The notes beneath the pieces are model-generated. The model saw only the letters and a program-made list of their open reading frames with translations, was not told the DNA's origin and made no database searches. A DNA stretch of 33,624 bases from a virus (lineage: Duplodnaviria > Heunggongvirae > Uroviricota > Caudoviricetes). The stretch covers positions 1 through 33,624 of the IMG/VR virus record IMGVR_UViG_2531839474_000013. One strand, written 5' to 3'. The position numbers and the translations under genes are program-made. Of the stretch, positions 834 through 29,265 are shown in pieces (positions within the stretch are counted from its first letter, which is position 1; every line of letters begins with the position of its first letter).

Positions 834-3800
834 TGCATAATCCTCCGTCCCGACGTGATGACTGCATAATTGACACAACCCTGCTGTCGATCAGTTCCAC
901 CAGCCCCCTGGCTGACTGCGTATCTATCTCGCCATTGCTCCCTTTATTCTGAATACTGATGTGATACACGGGAGAATAAACAAATCCCCCGCCACCATTC
1001 ACATTGCCAATGGCTCTGACTCCAAGAGAGCCGTCCGCTGCCCGGGTCAGTGGCATGATAGCTTCAGGCCCTGCCTCGCCCATCAGCCCGGCACCTTTCG
1101 CAAAAGCAAAATACGTCGGGGTATCCACAATGGTGTTACTGTAAGCACTCAGATTTGCCGATGTATAAACACCACCTTTTGCGTTTGCCACTGCACCGGA
1201 AAGCCAGTCGCCGACCGTACCAAGCCATCCTCCGGCACCGGACATGCTTTTGGAAAGTGACTTCAGCCCGTTAACGATGGCAGCGTTCATCAGAATTTTT
1301 GAAACTTCCTGGAGAATTGAACTCCCCCAGTTTCTCCAGTCCACAACATTTCCGGCCAGTGCATCGGAAATATTTGATACCAGCCCGTCCATAGTGGAAA
1401 CGACAGCATCTGCCGCCTGCGAAGCATAATCAGTGGCACTGTCTGCCCAGTTCGTCAGCCCCTCCTGGAGTCCGGCATTCCAGTTACTGCGTAAAGCATC
1501 GGCCTTTGCATAATAATCCTGCTGATCGCTGAGACGCTCTTCCAGATACTTTTCATTCAGCGATTTTTCCTGTTTCCACAGGGCTTCTTCAATTTCTCCG
1601 GCCTGATACTGTCTCAGCAGCTCGTTATTTTTCTGCTCAAACGCCTGCCGGATACTCCACATTTCCTGGAGTCGTTCACGCATCCGTGAGCCTTCACCAT
1701 ATCCCAGCAACTGCGCATCGTTAGACGCCCGGGCACTGGCATTACTGTCCGCCAGGCTGCTTTCATAAGCAGCAAGCTGCTCACGAATCTTTTTCTGGTC
1801 AATGAGTGCCGCATTCTGTAAAAGCGTTTTTTTCTGCGCTTCTGACAGAGTTGATAATTCGCCCTGACTGACCTGATATTTCACCCTGGCCAGTTCAGTA
1901 TTCTGCCCTGCCAGTGCTATTTGTTCTTTTTGCTGTTTAATCAGCCGTTTATAAATATCTTCTGTTTTTTCCGCTTCGGTCTTTTTATGTGTTTTAGGTT
2001 TATTTGCCTGGTTATTTCGCCAGGCATCCAGTGAGTTATTGATATAATTCTGTCTGGCTGCCTGATACGCCTCTCCCACAAAGCCGAGATCATCCGCAGC
2101 ATAACCCAGGCGGGCACGCTCACGGGCTTCCCCCTTCAGGCGGGACAGAGCCAGTTCACGCTCGCTATTATTCAGCGCAGTCTGCTGTTTATCATCCAGA
2201 ATGGCCTGTGGCAGCCGTAATGGTACATTCACCAGCCCCTGACGCTGCTGAAGTAACTCATTACCAAGCCCGAGAAGACGATTAAACTCGGTATGCTGCC
2301 CATTCATGATCAACAGGGACTGATACGCTTTGTTTTGTTCTGCCGCCTGTTGACGGATTAACGCCACCCGTCGCTCCTCCAGCCCGGCAAGCACATCCTG
2401 AATGGATTGCGCTTTGCCCTGCATTTGAGTGAGGCGAGACTGTTCAACTGCCAGTTGATTTGTTGCTTCTGCAAGCCCTTCTGTGACAGTTTTTACCGAC
2501 GTCATGTGGTTAATCATAAAACCGTTATCGGTTGTCCAGCCCGGGTTTGCCAGCACATACTGATAGCCAGCAATTTTTTCCTGTAAGGATTTGATCTTAC
2601 TTTTCTGCTCGTCAATTAACCTGTTTTGCTCATCAAGTGCCTGCCGCGTCTTTTCCTCATTATCTGACGTTTCAGGAAGCGACATTGCCGACGTTTTCTG
2701 GCGAATTTCGTCGATTGTTGCGGCATACTGGCGTGCAGATTCTCTGGCCTGCTCCTGATTCTGATACATCGTGTACCAGGCCGTAGCCCCCAGCATGACA
2801 AGCCCCGGCACACCACCAACCAGCCCCAGTGCCCCACTTAACAGACGACTCCCCACTGACGTGACATTATTCAGCGTTGTCTGTGCTGCTGTTCTGGCCG
2901 CAATATTACGGGTAAGTGACGCCTGGGCAGCAGCCAGTTTCGATTCTGCGGCTGCCTGCCTTTCGGTACCGCGAGCAGCAGCAACCGCCTGTTGCGCACG
3001 ATAAACCGCCGCACGCGCCCTGGCTGTTGCTATCTGCGTCCCCCGGAGCTGCGCTTCCGCAAGAGCCACTTCGTTTCTGGCTGCAGTAATTAATCCGGCA
3101 GTTGCAGATCCAGCAGAAGACGCCATATTGCCAAAATATCGGGCTACCCCGACGGCAACCAGAGCACCGGCAGCGGTTGCCACGGTGTCAATATTGCCTG
3201 CAAGACCATTCAGCACCCCGGAGAGCGTCTTCGTCACTCCGCTTGCCTCGTTCGCACCACCAACCCAGGCCATAAAGGCGTTTTCAACTTTGGTTGCAGA
3301 GGATGAAACCGTATCAGGCATTGCTGCATATTCATCACGCAACGCCCCAAGCTGACTAATCAGTGCAGGAACAACCTTATCGGCGGTCAGTTTTCCGTTA
3401 TCCGCCATGGCCTTCAGATCCTTACGGGCAACGCCCATTCCCGCGGCCAGCGCACGAATAACACGATCACCGCTCTCATTCACGGCGTTAAATTCTTCAC
3501 CGCGCAGCACTCCCTGCGCCAGTGCCTGGCTGAACTGCGTGATCACCGAACTGGCTTCTGCTGTACTGGCACCGGATAATTTCAGGCCCGTGGAGATCGC
3601 CTCGGTGACTTTCAGTACCTCCTCAGAACTGTAGCCATACTCCCGCATGGAAGCTGCAGAGCGGGCAAAAAGGCTGGCGTTATCAGAAAACGCCGTTCCC
3701 GTTCTCTGGCTGATTGCCATTAATTCACGTTGTGATACCTGAAAATCATCACTGGACTGTGAAGCCTGCTTCAGACGGGCATTTACTGAATTCCACTCAT

Positions 3801-18804: not shown

Positions 18805-19017
18805 TCAAGTCCGCATAAACTGATACACGATCTCCCTGAGCACTGTTTTCGATACAATTCGCTCATCAGCCCGCAAAGCTCTTACCCTAAGCATGTTCCC
18901 TTTTCGATGCCATACAGCTCTGGCTCCATCCGGAAAACAATCCATTTCAGCTACAACCGACATATCGTCACAACGAATAACTGCGTACTTACAATTCGCG
19001 GCGATCAACTTCTGCAT
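18805..19017 (-). CDS. hypothetical small protein
   Basis: 70 aa; ATG with AGAGG 8-9 nt upstream. Confidence 0.4.
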   Translation of the reverse strand: MQKLIAANCKYAVIRCDDMSVVAEMDCFPDGARAVWHRKGNMLRVRALRADERIVSKTVLREIVYQFMRT

Positions 19018-19114
19018 TGTAAAACCTCTGGTATTGGATAAAACATGGCTGGAATATATCCACTACAAATAACGATTTCACTCCCAAAAAATGCGTATTT
19101 CATGAGAAAAAACA

Positions 19115-19156
19115 ATGACTTTTTCTTTCTGTCATTTGTATACTCTAAAAATAGAG
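19115..19156 (+). promoter_or_regulatory. candidate promoter and palindromic operator of the toxin-antitoxin operon
   Basis: -35-like ATGACT, 18-nt spacer, -10 TATACT (19139..19144), then the palindrome CTCTAAAAATAGAG (19143..19156). Confidence 0.3.
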
Positions 19157-19258
19157 TGTTTTTTGAGCCGCCATTCCTTAGCAAGTCCTCTGTATGGATA
19201 TTGCCTGCCCTATTTAATTGTGTCACACTATGTATTACACAACGGTATGGAACCAAAC

Positions 19259-19630
19259 ATGCGCATTTTCAAAAATGCCTGGTTTGAACGCTTCGCACGA
19301 AAAAATCGGATTTCCGATAAAGCTCTGCGAGAAGTCGTGGAACTAGCTGATAAGGGACTCATATCCGCAGATTTGGGTAGTGGTGTCATTAAGCAGCGAT
19401 TAGCCCGAAGAGGTGGCGGTAAATCAGGCGGTTATAGGACAATAATTTTTTACCGCGTCGCAGAAAAGGCTTTTTTCATCTATGCGTACGCAAAGAATGA
19501 GAGAGAAAATATTACAGCCATCGAGGAAAACGCATTTCGAAAAGCTGCGCATCACGTTCTCAATCTTACTGATGAACAACTGGCGCAATTGATCCTGCAA
19601 GGTCAGTTTACGGAGGTACCCAATGAGTAA
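19259..19630 (+). CDS. type II toxin, RelE/ParE superfamily (HigB-2-like)
   Basis: GSGVIKQRLARRGGGKSGGYRTIIFY...YAKNERENI resembles V. cholerae HigB-2. Start placed at ATG 19259; the track's ORF from 19115 has a long, implausible leader. Toxin gene precedes the antitoxin. Confidence 0.75.
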   Translation: MRIFKNAWFERFARKNRISDKALREVVELADKGLISADLGSGVIKQRLARRGGGKSGGYRTIIFYRVAEKAFFIYAYAKNERENITAIEENAFRKAAHHVLNLTDEQLAQLILQGQFTEVPNE

Positions 19631-19940
19631 AAATTACCGCAGTGATGCACTTGCATCCGTACATGAAATGATGGAGTCACTTCAGGATATTGGCGCAGTT
19701 ACAAAACAAACTATGAGAGAGTTTGATGAACTCTGTCTGCAACCAGCGCCAACAATGTCGCCAGAAAGAATCCGGGCACTTCGCGAGCGCGAGCATCTGT
19801 CTCAACCTGTTTTCGCCAGATATCTTAATGTCAGTAAAAACCTCATTTCAGACTGGGAAAGGGGAATAAAGCGCCCTGGTGGCCCTGCCCTTCGTTTGCT
19901 TTCTGTGGTTGAGAAAAACGGAATTCAGTCAATCTGTTAA
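19623..19940 (+). CDS. HTH-XRE antitoxin (HigA-2-like)
   Basis: 105 aa; C-terminal HTH SQPVFARYLNVSKNLISDWERGIKRP; overlaps the toxin stop by 8 nt. Confidence 0.75.
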   Translation: MSKNYRSDALASVHEMMESLQDIGAVTKQTMREFDELCLQPAPTMSPERIRALREREHLSQPVFARYLNVSKNLISDWERGIKRPGGPALRLLSVVEKNGIQSIC

Positions 19941-19961
19941 TAAAAATTCACCATGAATAGC

Positions 19962-19995
19962 AAAACCCCGGACCATCAATCCGGGGTTTTTGTTT
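19962..19995 (+). terminator. intrinsic terminator after the toxin-antitoxin operon
   Basis: CCCCGGACCATCAATCCGGGG followed by TTTTTGTTTG. Confidence 0.6.
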
Positions 19996-19996
19996 G

Positions 19997-20080
19997 TTAT
20001 CCCCAGCGGCAAATCGAATACACCACCAGCGCCACCGCCATCGCAATTCCTACCGTTGTGAATGCTTCAGGCCAGGTCAT
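19997..20080 (-). CDS. possible 27-aa hydrophobic peptide, translationally coupled to the upstream gene
   Basis: ATG overlaps the stop of the 131-aa gene (ATGA); AGGAGGTGA 5-7 nt upstream; product MTWPEAFTTVGIAMAVALVVYSICRWG, a single TM-like segment. Confidence 0.3.
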   Translation of the reverse strand: MTWPEAFTTVGIAMAVALVVYSICRWG

Positions 20081-20472
20081 CGATTCACCTCCTGCTCAAT
20101 ATTTTTAAGGTCATTTTCCGCATACAGTATTGCTGTCCTGGCTGCTCGTAACCGGGCTTTGGCATTTTTCTCTTCACGTTCAAGTTTTGCCACAGCTTCA
20201 CGAAGAGCATCCCGCTTTGCATAGAGTGATTTAATCTCAGACACTATGTTTTCACCGTTTCTCGCACGGTCGAGAACAAGTTCGAACGGATCTAAAGCCA
20301 ATCCACACCGTTTGCAGGTAATCGTACGATTCACTTCTGAAATTGTTGTACGGATATGCTGACAGCATTTTTGCTCGACACTTTTTTCGTCGGTTATCAC
20401 AACGTTGAGGAGTCCTTCCTCCTCTGATTTTGGCTGTACCAGAGTGATAACATTGTCGACTTCATTTTTCAT
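20077..20472 (-). CDS. hypothetical protein with CxxC...CxxC zinc-ribbon-like motif and coiled-coil C-terminus
   Basis: 131 aa; CCQH...CKRCG; AGGAGG 7 nt upstream; start overlaps the DUF551 stop (ATGA). Confidence 0.5.
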   Translation of the reverse strand: MKNEVDNVITLVQPKSEEEGLLNVVITDEKSVEQKCCQHIRTTISEVNRTITCKRCGLALDPFELVLDRARNGENIVSEIKSLYAKRDALREAVAKLEREEKNAKARLRAARTAILYAENDLKNIEQEVNR

Positions 20473-21401
20473 CCGTTCACCTCCTGCGGTGGTTCCGGTA
20501 GCGGCATCCAGTGAGTTGAGCTCTCTACTTCGACGCCGTCTTTGTCCACAAAAGCCATCTTATTCCCGCCACAAGTGGGGCAAAAAACCTTATCCCAAGA
20601 ACCGGGGAATACATTACCGAGATCATCGAGAAGAATCACATCGCAATATTCAGCAGGAACTGCATCACTACAGCTTATCCAGCCAGCCGGAGTTACCGGA
20701 GGGGTACCCGATAGCGCATTCTGCTCCAGTGATGCTTTTACAAACCACGCTGCCTGAACTATAACGCCATGAATCCAGCGCAAATCAGCATCGCGATCTT
20801 TCTTTTTCATCTTCTCGCCACTTAAAGCCTGGCTTATGTGGCTGCGTACCAAGTCTTCATGTAACGCCTTCGCATCCTCAATGGTGAAACCACCAGGCAG
20901 GCGAGTCGGGGTTACATGAGGGTTGCCTTCCCCCTGACTCTGAAGCATGGCGGCACTCCGCTCTATACCATCCAGCGCGATTCGCAGTGCCTGAATTGTG
21001 GTAGAGCTATCGTTTGGGGCTATTCCATATCGCTCGAATACAGCGATATGACCGCGCATAATCTCAGGCGTAAGCTCTTTGTAAGCATAAGCAAGAGACC
21101 CTGATACATTATCCGGCACAACCGGAACTGACGGCGCAGACAGTAAAGCCTTGGCCATACACATTGCTTCCAGTCCTGTAGCCTCAGCTATACCGTCACG
21201 AATAAGTTCAAGCCCCTCTTTTGTTAACAGTTTCATTCCTTTATACATGACGGGCACCAGCGGTTCAGCTACCAGCGATGCCAGTGCAATTTTGAATAAC
21301 TCGCCCTCTACCCGCGCCATCTCTGAATTGGGGTGGCATTTCGCAATCGCTATTTTTAATTTCGCTTCTTCGATTAATTGTTCTTTGGTTAATTCAGTCA
21401 T
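20469..21401 (-). CDS. DUF551-family phage protein
   Basis: C-terminus ...FCPTCGG...THWMPLPEPP is typical of DUF551. Start placed at ATG 21401 (AAGGAAA upstream), giving 310 aa; the track's longer ORF overlaps the upstream gene. Confidence 0.6.
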   Translation of the reverse strand: MTELTKEQLIEEAKLKIAIAKCHPNSEMARVEGELFKIALASLVAEPLVPVMYKGMKLLTKEGLELIRDGIAEATGLEAMCMAKALLSAPSVPVVPDNVSGSLAYAYKELTPEIMRGHIAVFERYGIAPNDSSTTIQALRIALDGIERSAAMLQSQGEGNPHVTPTRLPGGFTIEDAKALHEDLVRSHISQALSGEKMKKKDRDADLRWIHGVIVQAAWFVKASLEQNALSGTPPVTPAGWISCSDAVPAEYCDVILLDDLGNVFPGSWDKVFCPTCGGNKMAFVDKDGVEVESSTHWMPLPEPPQEVNG

Positions 21402-21402
21402 T

Positions 21403-21621
21403 TCAGTTTTCCTTATATGGATTAATTTTGTTGTGTAGCGCCCTGAATGGTTCCCATACCATATCGATATACAGTTCAACAATCGGCTCAAATATTTTTC
21501 CGATTATCCAAACCAGAAACAGCAGGTTTATCGGTATCATCAACACGATAAACAGAATGAGAAACAGAAATTCTGTTGTTCTACTCTTTCGCGGATATTC
21601 TTTTCTGAATAATGCAGTCAT
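21403..21621 (-). CDS. hypothetical small membrane protein
   Basis: 72 aa with a hydrophobic core FLFLILFIVLMIPINLLFLVWIIG; AT-rich; ends 2 nt before the DUF551 start. Confidence 0.4.
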   Translation of the reverse strand: MTALFRKEYPRKSRTTEFLFLILFIVLMIPINLLFLVWIIGKIFEPIVELYIDMVWEPFRALHNKINPYKEN

Positions 21622-22246: not shown

Positions 22247-23134
22247 TCAGGCTGCCAGATCATCGTTTCTGATGGAAGCATAATAAGCTTTTTCTGCTTC
22301 TGCCGGAGGGATATGACCCAGCCTTCCCAGCAATCGTCGATTGTTATACCAGTCCACCCACGTGAGTGTGGCCAGTTCCACTTCTGCACGGTTTTTCCAG
22401 CTCTTACGGTGTATTACCTCCGCTTTGTAAAGACCATTGATGCTCTCCGCCATCGCGTTGTCATACGAGTCACCTGTACTCCCTGTTGATGCCAGCAGTT
22501 TTGCTTCTTTTAGTCGCTCCGTATAGGCCAGTGATACATACTGAGAACCTTTATCACTGTGATGGACTGTGCCGGACGGCCGACGGGCCCACAACGCCTG
22601 CTCCAGTGCATCCAGCACGAATGTCGTTTCCATAGACGATGAGACTCGCCACCCCACGATACATCCGGCAAACACATCAATGATGAACGCCACATAGACG
22701 AAGCCCTGCCATGTGCTGACGTAAGTAAAATCAGCCACCCACAGCTGGTCAGGACGTTCTGCCACGAACTGACGGTTTACGCGGTCGCCTGCGGAAACGG
22801 CTTTCCGGCTGACGGTAGTACGGACCTTTTTACCCCGGAGAACACCGGCAAGTCCCATAACCGCCATGAGGCGCGCCACTGTACATCTGGCCACCCTGAT
22901 ACCTTCGCGTAACAACTGGCGCCAGACTTTACGCACACCGTACACCTGATGATTTTCATCGTATACGCGCTGTATCTCTCTCTTCAGCCAGTCATCGCGC
23001 TGAGCACGGGCACTGCGTTTATCAGGATGATGTCGCTGTTGCTGACAGTGGTAATACGTTGACGGGGCAATATGCAGTTCACTGCATACCGGTCCGACCC
23101 CGTACTGCTCACGCAGCTTATCCAGCAGCGGCAT
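22247..23134 (-). CDS. IS3-family transposase OrfB (DDE catalytic domain)
   Basis: 295 aa with integrase-core-like motifs (ADFTYV, HSDKGSQY, DNAMAES); in the -1 frame relative to orfA. Confidence 0.9.
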   Translation of the reverse strand: MPLLDKLREQYGVGPVCSELHIAPSTYYHCQQQRHHPDKRSARAQRDDWLKREIQRVYDENHQVYGVRKVWRQLLREGIRVARCTVARLMAVMGLAGVLRGKKVRTTVSRKAVSAGDRVNRQFVAERPDQLWVADFTYVSTWQGFVYVAFIIDVFAGCIVGWRVSSSMETTFVLDALEQALWARRPSGTVHHSDKGSQYVSLAYTERLKEAKLLASTGSTGDSYDNAMAESINGLYKAEVIHRKSWKNRAEVELATLTWVDWYNNRRLLGRLGHIPPAEAEKAYYASIRNDDLAA

Positions 23135-23460
23135 TATTTTTTCCAGAGGCGGTCGAACTCCGCCTTCGCAAAATAAGCGGAAGCCTGGCGAAGGATATCG
23201 TTACTGCGGCGCAGTTCACGATTTTCACGTTCCAGCTCTTTCAGACGCTGACGTTCAGCGGTGGTGAGTCCACCATCACCACTCCCGGTATCCCGCTCAT
23301 GCTGACGAACCCACACACGCAGAGTCTCTGGTGTACAGCCAATCTTTGGGGCAATGGAACAAATTGCCGCCCATTGTGAGTCATATTCGCCCTGACTTTC
23401 CAGAACCATACGAACTGCCCGTTGACGGACCTCGGGGGAAAAACGTGTATTTTTAGTCAT
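23134..23460 (-). CDS. IS3-family transposase OrfA (HTH domain)
   Basis: 108 aa with HTH and leucine-zipper-like C-terminus; ends TGG AAA AAA TAA, where orfB continues in the -1 frame. Confidence 0.9.
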
Positions 23461-28704: not shown

Positions 28705-29265
28705 TTCATCCTCCTGAGGGTTAGTAATTAAGGAGTTCTCCACGGGTGAGGTGGAGTGCGTGCGCCGGACACGGGTGAGCATCCGGCACTGACAGTTTAC
28801 TGAAAGGATATCTCCCTGAAAAGTCAGGGCATAACGCGAAAGCGCACGGCGAAGTTGTTGGTTCATAGATAGCCTGTCGTTAAATTTTCGTCGACCGTGC
28901 GCTTCCGGTTGTGGCACTCCGCGAAATGGCGCGGCGGTAAGTATGGCGGGGTTATTCCTTCCCCGTTGAGGACACCGGGTTGTCAGGTTGACCATACGCT
29001 TAAGTGACAACCCCGCTGCAACGCCCTCTGTTATCAATTTTCTGGTGACGTTTGGCGGTATCAGTTTTACTCCGTGACTGCTCTGCCGCCCTTTTTAAAG
29101 TGAATTTTGTGATGCGGTGAATGCGGCTAAGCGCACGAGGAACAGTTAAAACCAAAAACAGTGTTATGGGTGGATTCTCTGTATCCGGCGTTAATTGTTA
29201 ACTGGTTAACGTCACCTGGAGGCACCAGGCACTGCATCACAAAATTCATTGTTGAGGACGCGATA

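Follow-up and report, generated by a model that had tools for sequence, protein, structure and literature searches.

A 27-codon open reading frame (ORF) lies on the minus strand at positions 19997-20080 of IMG/VR record IMGVR_UViG_2531839474_000013, a 33,624-nt stretch of Caudoviricetes DNA that was analysed at its full length (hereafter the window) and that is a Rac/Qin-like lambdoid prophage of Escherichia coli. We conclude that lambdoid phages and P1-like phage-plasmids probably have in it a real micro-gene that codes for protein, which would specify a co-translated, single-pass inner-membrane peptide whose helix may pack against a membrane partner. Taken alone, an ORF of 27 codons is not significant, because the 4 kb around it are overlapped by 68 ORFs of 20 aa or more. 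This one is raised above chance by its conservation: it is intact at 45 of 46 loci, none of 44 variants has an internal stop, and synonymous changes are in excess. We regard it as very likely that the ORF is a real gene under selection.

Start, stop and ribosome-binding site of the ORF

19997-20080, minus strand: 27-codon ORF with ATG start and TAA stop; product MTWPEAFTTVGIAMAVALVVYSICRWG, a predicted single-pass membrane helix
20080-20078 and 19999-19997, minus strand: ATG start and TAA stop of the ORF, respectively, as read from the sequence
20085-20093, minus strand: Shine-Dalgarno sequence AGGAGGTGA, within the last codons (..QEVNR*) of the 131-aa gene
20077-20472, minus strand: 131-aa gene, phrog_1621, with a Cys-rich N-terminal half and a coiled-coil C-terminal half; named "hypothetical protein" by PGAP

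The initial annotation had described a start/stop overlap of the ATGA type together with a near-consensus ribosome-binding site, and every element of that description is correct in the sequence. The AGGAGGT core of the ribosome-binding site stands 6 nt ahead of the peptide ATG, which shares its TG with the TGA stop (20079-20077) of the 131-aa ORF. Translational coupling, claimed on the same grounds, is borne out by the wider set of copies: ATGA overlaps are present at 115 of 122 junctions, and almost all 122 have a Shine-Dalgarno match at a distance of 5-11 nt, either AGGAGGT at 6 nt or GGAGG at 10 nt. Junctions of the main family have the ribosome-binding site within the last codons of the upstream gene, and so upstream proteins that are otherwise unrelated share the tail ..QEVNQ* or ..QEVNR*. 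We also considered a programmed-frameshift extension of the upstream protein and find it unlikely, as the junction ..GTG AAT CGA TGA.. has neither an X XXY YYZ heptamer nor a site for re-pairing of the P-site tRNA, and the frame behind the ATG closes 6 codons upstream.

Conservation and coding constraint

Conservation of the ORF and its synonymous variation in homologues had been proposed as checks in the initial annotation, with lack of conservation named as a refutation, and both checks came out in favour of a gene. Using the 131-aa protein alone as the query, 80 viral contigs were retrieved (59-100% identity). Homologous sequence follows the 131-aa gene in 46 of these, and in all except one the ORF is intact, including loci whose upstream protein shares no more than 59-60% identity; where a contig lacks the ORF, unrelated sequence stands in its place. 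The single genome-contig locus found with the 131-aa protein, from Klebsiella, has no peptide ORF and unrelated sequence there.

The 44 distinct nucleotide variants keep the ORF frame open throughout, and both other sense frames are closed in every one of them. The stop codon stands at one fixed site, as TAA in 38 variants and TGA in 6. Intact length variants of 25, 31, 33 and 35 aa differ by whole codons only; the 25-aa forms derive from two independent 6-nt deletions, and the 31-, 33- and 35-aa forms from expansion of a hexanucleotide repeat inside the helix. The resulting helix-length repeats read ..AMAMAMAMAV.. or ..AVAVAVAV.. (proteins P0038, P0040 and P0042; loci L011, L026, L027, L065 and L066).

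A first pN/pS estimate of 0.21 was biased because its loci had been picked by peptide similarity. For copies picked without regard to the peptide, solely through the upstream gene or through nucleotide BLAST, pN/pS is 0.41, while four other frames give 0.9-1.3. Of the single-base changes counted on a minimum spanning tree, 36 are synonymous and 37 nonsynonymous, although the expected synonymous share is 24% (P = 3e-6).

Module borders and neighbouring genes

Module borders were scored by ungapped homology to the window among 85 unique genomic contexts. Homology begins 0-8 nt before the ATG in 54 of the 85 contexts and ends exactly at the stop codon in 75; the peptide ORF is thus a discrete module, its homology borders matching its start and stop. 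The tightness of the fit is also seen in BP-4795 and O104:H4, where the ORF exactly fills the gap separating two tightly packed genes.

The genes found upstream group into 21 clusters, whose C-terminal parts are of at least four unrelated types, namely the 131-aa family, DUF551 (..HWMPLPEPPQEVNQ), a type ending ..ERNGLISVEDILR, and EaA; one further genome has a beta-clamp-domain protein directly before the peptide ORF. Most of these partners belong to a mosaic Ead/Ea22-like array, which this prophage carries within its rightward early operon, with the replication genes on one side and the DUF968-RusA-Q block on the other, and which Stx phages carry in the exo-xis region or the region adjoining att. 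In 933W and BP-4795 the peptide ORF comes directly after Ea22-like genes. Downstream, 16 unrelated contexts were found. The commonest is hok/mok/sok; others are a convergent ParE/RelE-type module, the RelE/helix-turn-helix module of the window, an antirepressor-like gene and DUF4222-xis-int. Toxin-antitoxin modules and other morons are thus concentrated in the slot 3' of the peptide gene (window 19115-19940; L002, L008, L011, L064 and L174).

Such a pattern raises the alternative that the sequence is kept chiefly as DNA, being a short linker at a module boundary that serves as a foothold for homologous recombination, shuffling Ea22-like/DUF551 cassettes upstream and morons downstream, with the peptide incidental. 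An island of ~100 nt of homology amid variable flanks agrees with this, as do the 19-nt linker repeated on either side of the 131-aa cassette and the complete lack of variation in codons 21-24 among the closer copies. A pure DNA linker, however, predicts no codon-position bias and is contradicted by the synonymous excess. Start, stop and frame are moreover kept in 44 of 44 variants, with alternation between TAA and TGA; replacements are conservative hydrophobic ones, with the small and aromatic positions invariant; and copies at 50-70% identity, which would be a poor substrate for homologous recombination, retain both the 27-aa length and the motif. We judge this alternative very unlikely. The nearest parallel is with the mosaic-joint linkers of lambdoid phages, likewise short conserved sequences exactly at the gene boundaries of exchangeable modules; such gene-boundary joints, in keeping with the modular theory of Susskind and Botstein, have reportedly been described for HK97, HK022 and HK620. 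Unlike them, the conserved island here goes beyond a junction and holds a complete ORF under peptide-level constraint.

Linker repeats and possible cassette exchange

20469-21491, minus strand: DUF551-domain gene (PF04448, E = 1.9e-18) with an Ea22-like N-terminal module (IALASL.AEP)
20077-20095, minus strand: 19-nt intercistronic linker GCAGGAGGTGAATCGATGA (ribosome-binding site and ATGA), leading from the 131-aa gene to the peptide gene
20469-20487, minus strand: second copy of the linker, GCAGGAGGTGAACGGATGA, leading from the DUF551 gene to the 131-aa gene
20008-20017, minus strand: codons 22-25 of the peptide gene, UCGAUUUGCC, complementary at 10 of 10 positions to the spacer GGUGAAUCGA (20080-20089)

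The local run is read in the order DUF551 gene, 131-aa gene, 27-aa gene. Its 19-nt junction GCAGGAGGTGAANNGATGA has exactly 2 occurrences in the window, against 0.01 expected, and the two linker copies form a direct repeat around the 131-aa gene. Where a locus has the 131-aa gene the linker is found twice, at a spacing of 392 nt; where DUF551 abuts the peptide gene it is found once. This pattern suggests insertion of a cassette at the coupling linker, and the repeated linker would show in a concrete case how phage accessory arrays exchange cassettes under translational coupling. An extended version of this idea makes the peptide gene and the 19-nt linker the fixed 3' anchor of a cassette-exchange system, in which Ea22-like, DUF551 and 131-aa cassettes are swapped and coupling is always restored; the peptide would then be the common membrane partner or tether of the variable upstream protein and would in that role bear on the choice between lysis and lysogeny or on Stx phage induction. 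We consider this version rather unlikely.

The spacer GGUGAAUCGA lies between the ribosome-binding site and the AUG, and its stem with codons 22-25 can form in ~33 of 54 contexts; other junction families are without it, and no compensatory changes were seen. The stem may reinforce translational coupling, and it is not the explanation of the conservation. Structured RNA in general was rejected as the cause of conservation: the fold z-score of -1.9 is dominated by the terminator, Rfam gave no match and the stem is uncompensated.

Properties of the predicted peptide

The description of the product as a hydrophobic single helix in the initial annotation is supported by two kinds of calculation. 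The Kyte-Doolittle mean over residues 6-24 is 2.1 for the window peptide and 1.4-2.6 in all 18 distinct 27-mers extracted, and AlphaFold2, given as a single sequence the 32-residue in-frame stretch, returned one helix covering peptide residues 3-26 (mean pLDDT 84.5, core 93-96). M1, W3, P4, G11, A15, S22 and W26 are invariant in 18 of 18 peptides, and a nineteenth (Stx2a_WGPS2) has S15 and A22, so that both positions remain small. On the helix, G11, A15 and S22 are confined to an arc of 40 degrees, for which the chance with three positions is 2.6%. Aromatic residues are found at either helix end (W3/F7 and Y21/W26).

The N-terminal segment is acidic, with E or D at position 5, and the C-terminus carries R25. 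For this charge pattern the positive-inside rule predicts the N-terminus outside and the Arg25 end inside, and on this basis the acidic N-terminus is predicted to face the periplasm and the Arg25 end the cytoplasm. C-terminal extensions exist, and one variant with a basic extension (..RWGKNVRRD) fits a cytoplasmic C-terminus. Insertion of the peptide in the membrane is likely. A lipoprotein or signal peptide was considered and dismissed: ..YSIC.. is unlike a lipobox, and the mature product would have 4 residues.

In protein P0050 (143 aa) an Ea22-like domain (115 aa; phrog_1138, E = 1.7e-21) is fused in frame to the peptide. Six contigs from four sequencing runs carry it, and at loci L177-L180 its gene lies at 3001-3432; it occupies the usual slot ahead of DUF4222-xis-int. 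The fusion results from one extra base at the junction, with GGAG kept 10 nt before the internal ATG. As a lead only, P0050 hints at a link between the peptide and the upstream proteins. A DUF551-peptide fusion suggested by protein clustering turned out to be an artefact of the mis-framed partial protein P0012.

One could go further and see in the peptide a membrane tether or partner of the variable upstream protein (Ea22-like, DUF551 or 131-aa), with coupling ensuring joint synthesis and the peptide bringing its neighbour to the inner membrane. The peptide is indeed always coupled directly after an array member, with at least 21 upstream clusters, and the natural Ea22-like fusion recurs on contigs from four sequencing runs. 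The C-terminal domains of the upstream proteins are, however, mutually unrelated, so that a tether would have to serve many partners or recognise only the shared tail ..QEVNQ/..QEVNR. P0050 itself needs a topology opposite to the one predicted for the free peptide, and it is one base away from a normal junction and could be a neutral accident. Such a tethering role is quite improbable.

Distribution

Searches with the peptide found it in 94 phage records, including 933W, VT2-Sakai, BP-4795, Min27, Stx2 I, Stx2 II and ArgO145, and in more than 506 viral contigs of IMG/VR. They also found it on 181 plasmids, mostly non-mobilizable, from Escherichia, Salmonella and Klebsiella hosts; the plasmid examples listed are mostly 90-100 kb, and one that was examined was typed IncY, that is, P1-like. 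Of 5426 complete E. coli genomes, 1727 match a 116-nt nucleotide query, and a single genome may hold as many as 7 copies. When 1.84 billion representative proteins were searched exhaustively with HMMER, just 25 relatives emerged, 24 of them plainly the same peptide, which indicates that the family is confined, as far as sampled, to enterobacterial phages and phage-plasmids. The K-12 prophages Rac and Qin were both checked, and the peptide gene is not present in either.

Candidate function

In the reading that we favour, ribosomes that end the upstream gene at its UGA would restart at the overlapping AUG, aided by the strong ribosome-binding site, as the anatomy of the junction suggests. The peptide would be produced alongside early accessory proteins, as the last cistron of a hypervariable Ea22-like/DUF551 array, and its 27 residues would insert as one transmembrane helix. 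During early phage gene expression the small-residue face (G11, A/S15, S/A22) may then pack against a helix of a host inner-membrane protein or against a second copy of the peptide. It would thus work like the small inner-membrane modulator proteins and not as a stand-alone toxin. The mechanism of a helix-packing modulator is put forward tentatively, and by inference "membrane modulator" is the most plausible class.

Small inner-membrane modulators such as KdpF, AcrZ, MgrB, MgtS, PmrR and CydX resemble the peptide: they are shorter than 50 aa and have a single hydrophobic helix with aromatic or charged residues at its ends and small residues on its packing face. They too are usually missed by annotation, and they are often a terminal or co-translated cistron (KdpF, CydX). 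In contrast to these modulators, the peptide gene is phage-borne and mobile as a cassette of ~100 nt, and its neighbours do not encode a partner complex. By sequence it is unrelated to them: the best hit, to the KdpF model TIGR02115, reaches 14.7 bits and stays below the cut-off of 26.85, and no kdp genes are nearby. Identity with KdpF was accordingly rejected, the sub-cut-off match being a mere resemblance of hydrophobic helices without linkage to kdpABC.

The peptide could otherwise damage the membrane alone, as a type I toxin-like peptide, a holin-like depolariser or a superinfection-exclusion factor, lowering the membrane potential or permeabilising the membrane when the early operon is expressed. 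Size and hydropathy fit peptides of the Hok, TisB, DinQ or ShoB class; like the type I toxins (Hok/Gef, TisB, DinQ, ShoB, Ibs and Ldr), the peptide is predicted to form a single hydrophobic helix and is encoded in prophages. The slot directly downstream is rich in toxin-antitoxin modules, with hok/mok in most contexts and RelE/ParE types elsewhere, and a genuine hok/mok/sok locus adjoins the peptide gene in the majority of phages. As a repressor controls the early operons in which the gene lies, a quiet lysogen would lack its product.

The type I toxin reading, offered as one possibility in the initial annotation, nevertheless fared poorly. The architecture of a type I toxin was not found, because the peptide gene has no promoter of its own and no antisense promoter nearby, its flanks are variable, its translation is promoted and no toxin model matches. 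A promoter scan of 19000-21600 gave only two promoter-like sites, both ~1 kb off, although the scan was a simple one that a non-canonical RNA could escape. Rfam has no family at the peptide locus, and no antisense RNA or translation-blocking leader was found there; the sole candidate stem for such a leader is missing from other junction families and is uncompensated. Searches of Pfam and NCBIfam at E ≤10 yielded only sub-threshold hydrophobic-helix matches (DUF883_C, PTR2 and KdpF) and none to Hok/Gef, Ldr, TisB, Ibs or ShoB. A strong ribosome-binding site and an ATGA overlap within an operon are the opposite of a translation-silenced toxin mRNA. An Ala/Val/Gly-rich helix with a small-residue face and one C-terminal charge is also unlike the charged or amphipathic pore-forming toxins, and up to 7 copies per genome are tolerated. 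We therefore consider action as a membrane-damaging peptide unlikely.

Several observations weigh against the membrane-modulator reading that we prefer. The hydrophobicity of the helix is moderate and its composition Ala/Val/Gly-rich, which leaves stable insertion uncertain, and the overall helical moment of conservation is not significant. The P0050 fusion needs its N-terminus in the cytoplasm, opposite to our prediction, unless the free peptide is still made from the internal start. Decayed copies occur, if rarely: L021 (2893-2967) is a hybrid past codon 15, and the copy in Shigella phage POCJ13 (L182 1201-1281) has W3 changed to TAG and further changes. Variants without W3-P4 are present at three loci. 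Curated small-protein data for K-12 are inapplicable because the K-12 Rac and Qin prophages are without the gene, and the peptide was not found in the O157:H7 Sakai Ribo-seq supplements searched or in the Pro-SMP finder supplement. Lastly, the antisense frame that shares third codon positions with the ORF gives the same synonymous signal, as symmetry requires.

That antisense frame was itself considered as the coding frame and rejected, having no conserved start or stop and containing stops in 2 of 44 variants; its open stretch ranges from 10 to 263 codons by context. Long antisense ORFs have been annotated across the slot, namely ORF C38 in Stx2 II (L084 1001-1750, minus strand) and ORF82 in Min27 (L085 1178-1750, minus strand). 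Antisense ORFs over the slot are mostly open within the module, but their extent follows the context over the same range and they have stops in 2-4 of 44 variants; the calls of ORF C38 and ORF82 are probably spurious.

Annotation status and significance

The initial annotation had remarked that the ORF was missed by the ORF track, and standard annotation misses it as well: the slot is empty in the PGAP annotation of an E. coli record that is 100% identical, and empty too in the records of 933W and BP-4795. Common gene callers usually apply a minimum of 90 nt, and the peptide ORF with its stop measures 84 nt. A few GenBank records contain the exact 27-aa sequence, named either "bacteriophage protein" or "hypothetical protein" (AOM45384.1, ASL59396.1 and others), and the hypothetical proteins of RefSeq and UniRef include a 40-aa N-extended form. 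The peptide belongs to no family of Pfam, NCBIfam or PHROGs, phrog_4612 at E = 0.019 being too weak; a full-text literature search for peptide strings found no paper; and no annotation of the peptide appears in 933W, BP-4795 or PGAP genomes. By its predicted properties the peptide belongs with the small single-pass membrane proteins.

Its closest companions by location are the exo-xis accessory genes of lambda and Stx phages (ea22, ea8.5, orf60a, orf61, orf63 and orf73), with which it shares neighbourhood and early expression class; unlike them, the peptide ORF is unannotated in those genomes. The exo-xis proteins described are soluble, and a modelling survey of the region mentions no transmembrane peptide (PMC8614690).

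Standard annotation omits a gene that is carried by about one in three complete E. coli genomes, by the Shiga-toxin reference phages (933W, VT2-Sakai, BP-4795 and Min27) and by many IncY P1-like phage-plasmids. The exo-xis/Ea22 region is known to affect lysogenisation and induction of Stx prophages, so that a membrane peptide may have been lost unnoticed in deletion studies of the region. Small membrane peptides are to be expected in phages; the gene of this predicted one is widespread and lies in a region that modulates Stx phage development, and a module of ~100 nt with sharp borders is easy to test.

Genomic context in the window

19962-19990, no strand assigned: G+C-rich hairpin AAAACCCCGGA..TCCGGGGTTTT, separating the peptide gene from the convergent toxin-antitoxin operon
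19115-19940, plus strand: RelE/ParE-family toxin and helix-turn-helix antitoxin (PGAP names), convergent to the peptide gene; a variable "moron" outside the peptide module

As an annotated reference for context we used the chromosome NZ_CP148401, which is identical over a 1.3-kb query across the peptide region. Its gene order begins with ydfC, ydfB and ydfA, followed by a repressor-like gene, a Cro-like regulator and YdaT, and then by replication genes, DUF977 and DUF4406. It continues with DUF4014, DUF551, the 131-aa hypothetical protein, an empty slot (occupied by the 27-aa ORF) and the convergent antitoxin and RelE/ParE toxin, and ends with DUF968, RusA, a Q-like gene and lysis genes. The 27-aa ORF is the last cistron of the accessory run within the rightward early operon.

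The hairpin at 19962-19990 begins 6 nt past the peptide stop and was scored by the scan as a plus-strand terminator; the minus strand has a weaker tail after it, UUUUGCUAUU, which makes for a weaker terminator. An identical hairpin follows the peptide gene also in contexts without the RelE/ParE toxin-antitoxin module. The claim in the initial annotation that the ORF ends immediately before a terminator is accurate for the window and fails as a general rule, since a hairpin and T-tract lie directly downstream in just 10 of 44 contexts by a strict scan, to which ParE-type contexts probably add more.

This bears on a further alternative, in which the act of translation alone matters: ribosomes brought to the end of the transcript would counter Rho-dependent polarity or occlude the terminator hairpin and so tune read-through downstream. 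With the window stop 6 nt from the hairpin, a terminating ribosome would cover the 5' arm, and the spacer between ribosome-binding site and AUG can pair with the 3' end of the ORF in the main junction family. Against it stand the small share of contexts with a hairpin and T-tract, both of which are lacking in the commonest (hok/mok) and the DUF4222 contexts, and the constraint at the peptide level, which pure ribosome delivery does not need. We hold this alternative to be highly improbable.

Two RNA elements were noted elsewhere in the window. An Rfam ALIL pseudoknot, the frameshift element of the IS3 family (120.9 bits), lies at 23063-23179 on the minus strand with ORFs at 22247-23134 and 23134-23460 (minus strand), and indicates an IS element inserted in the early region of the prophage. 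The small RNA DicF (76.7 bits) is encoded at 29040-29091 on the plus strand, as in the immunity region of the Qin prophage.

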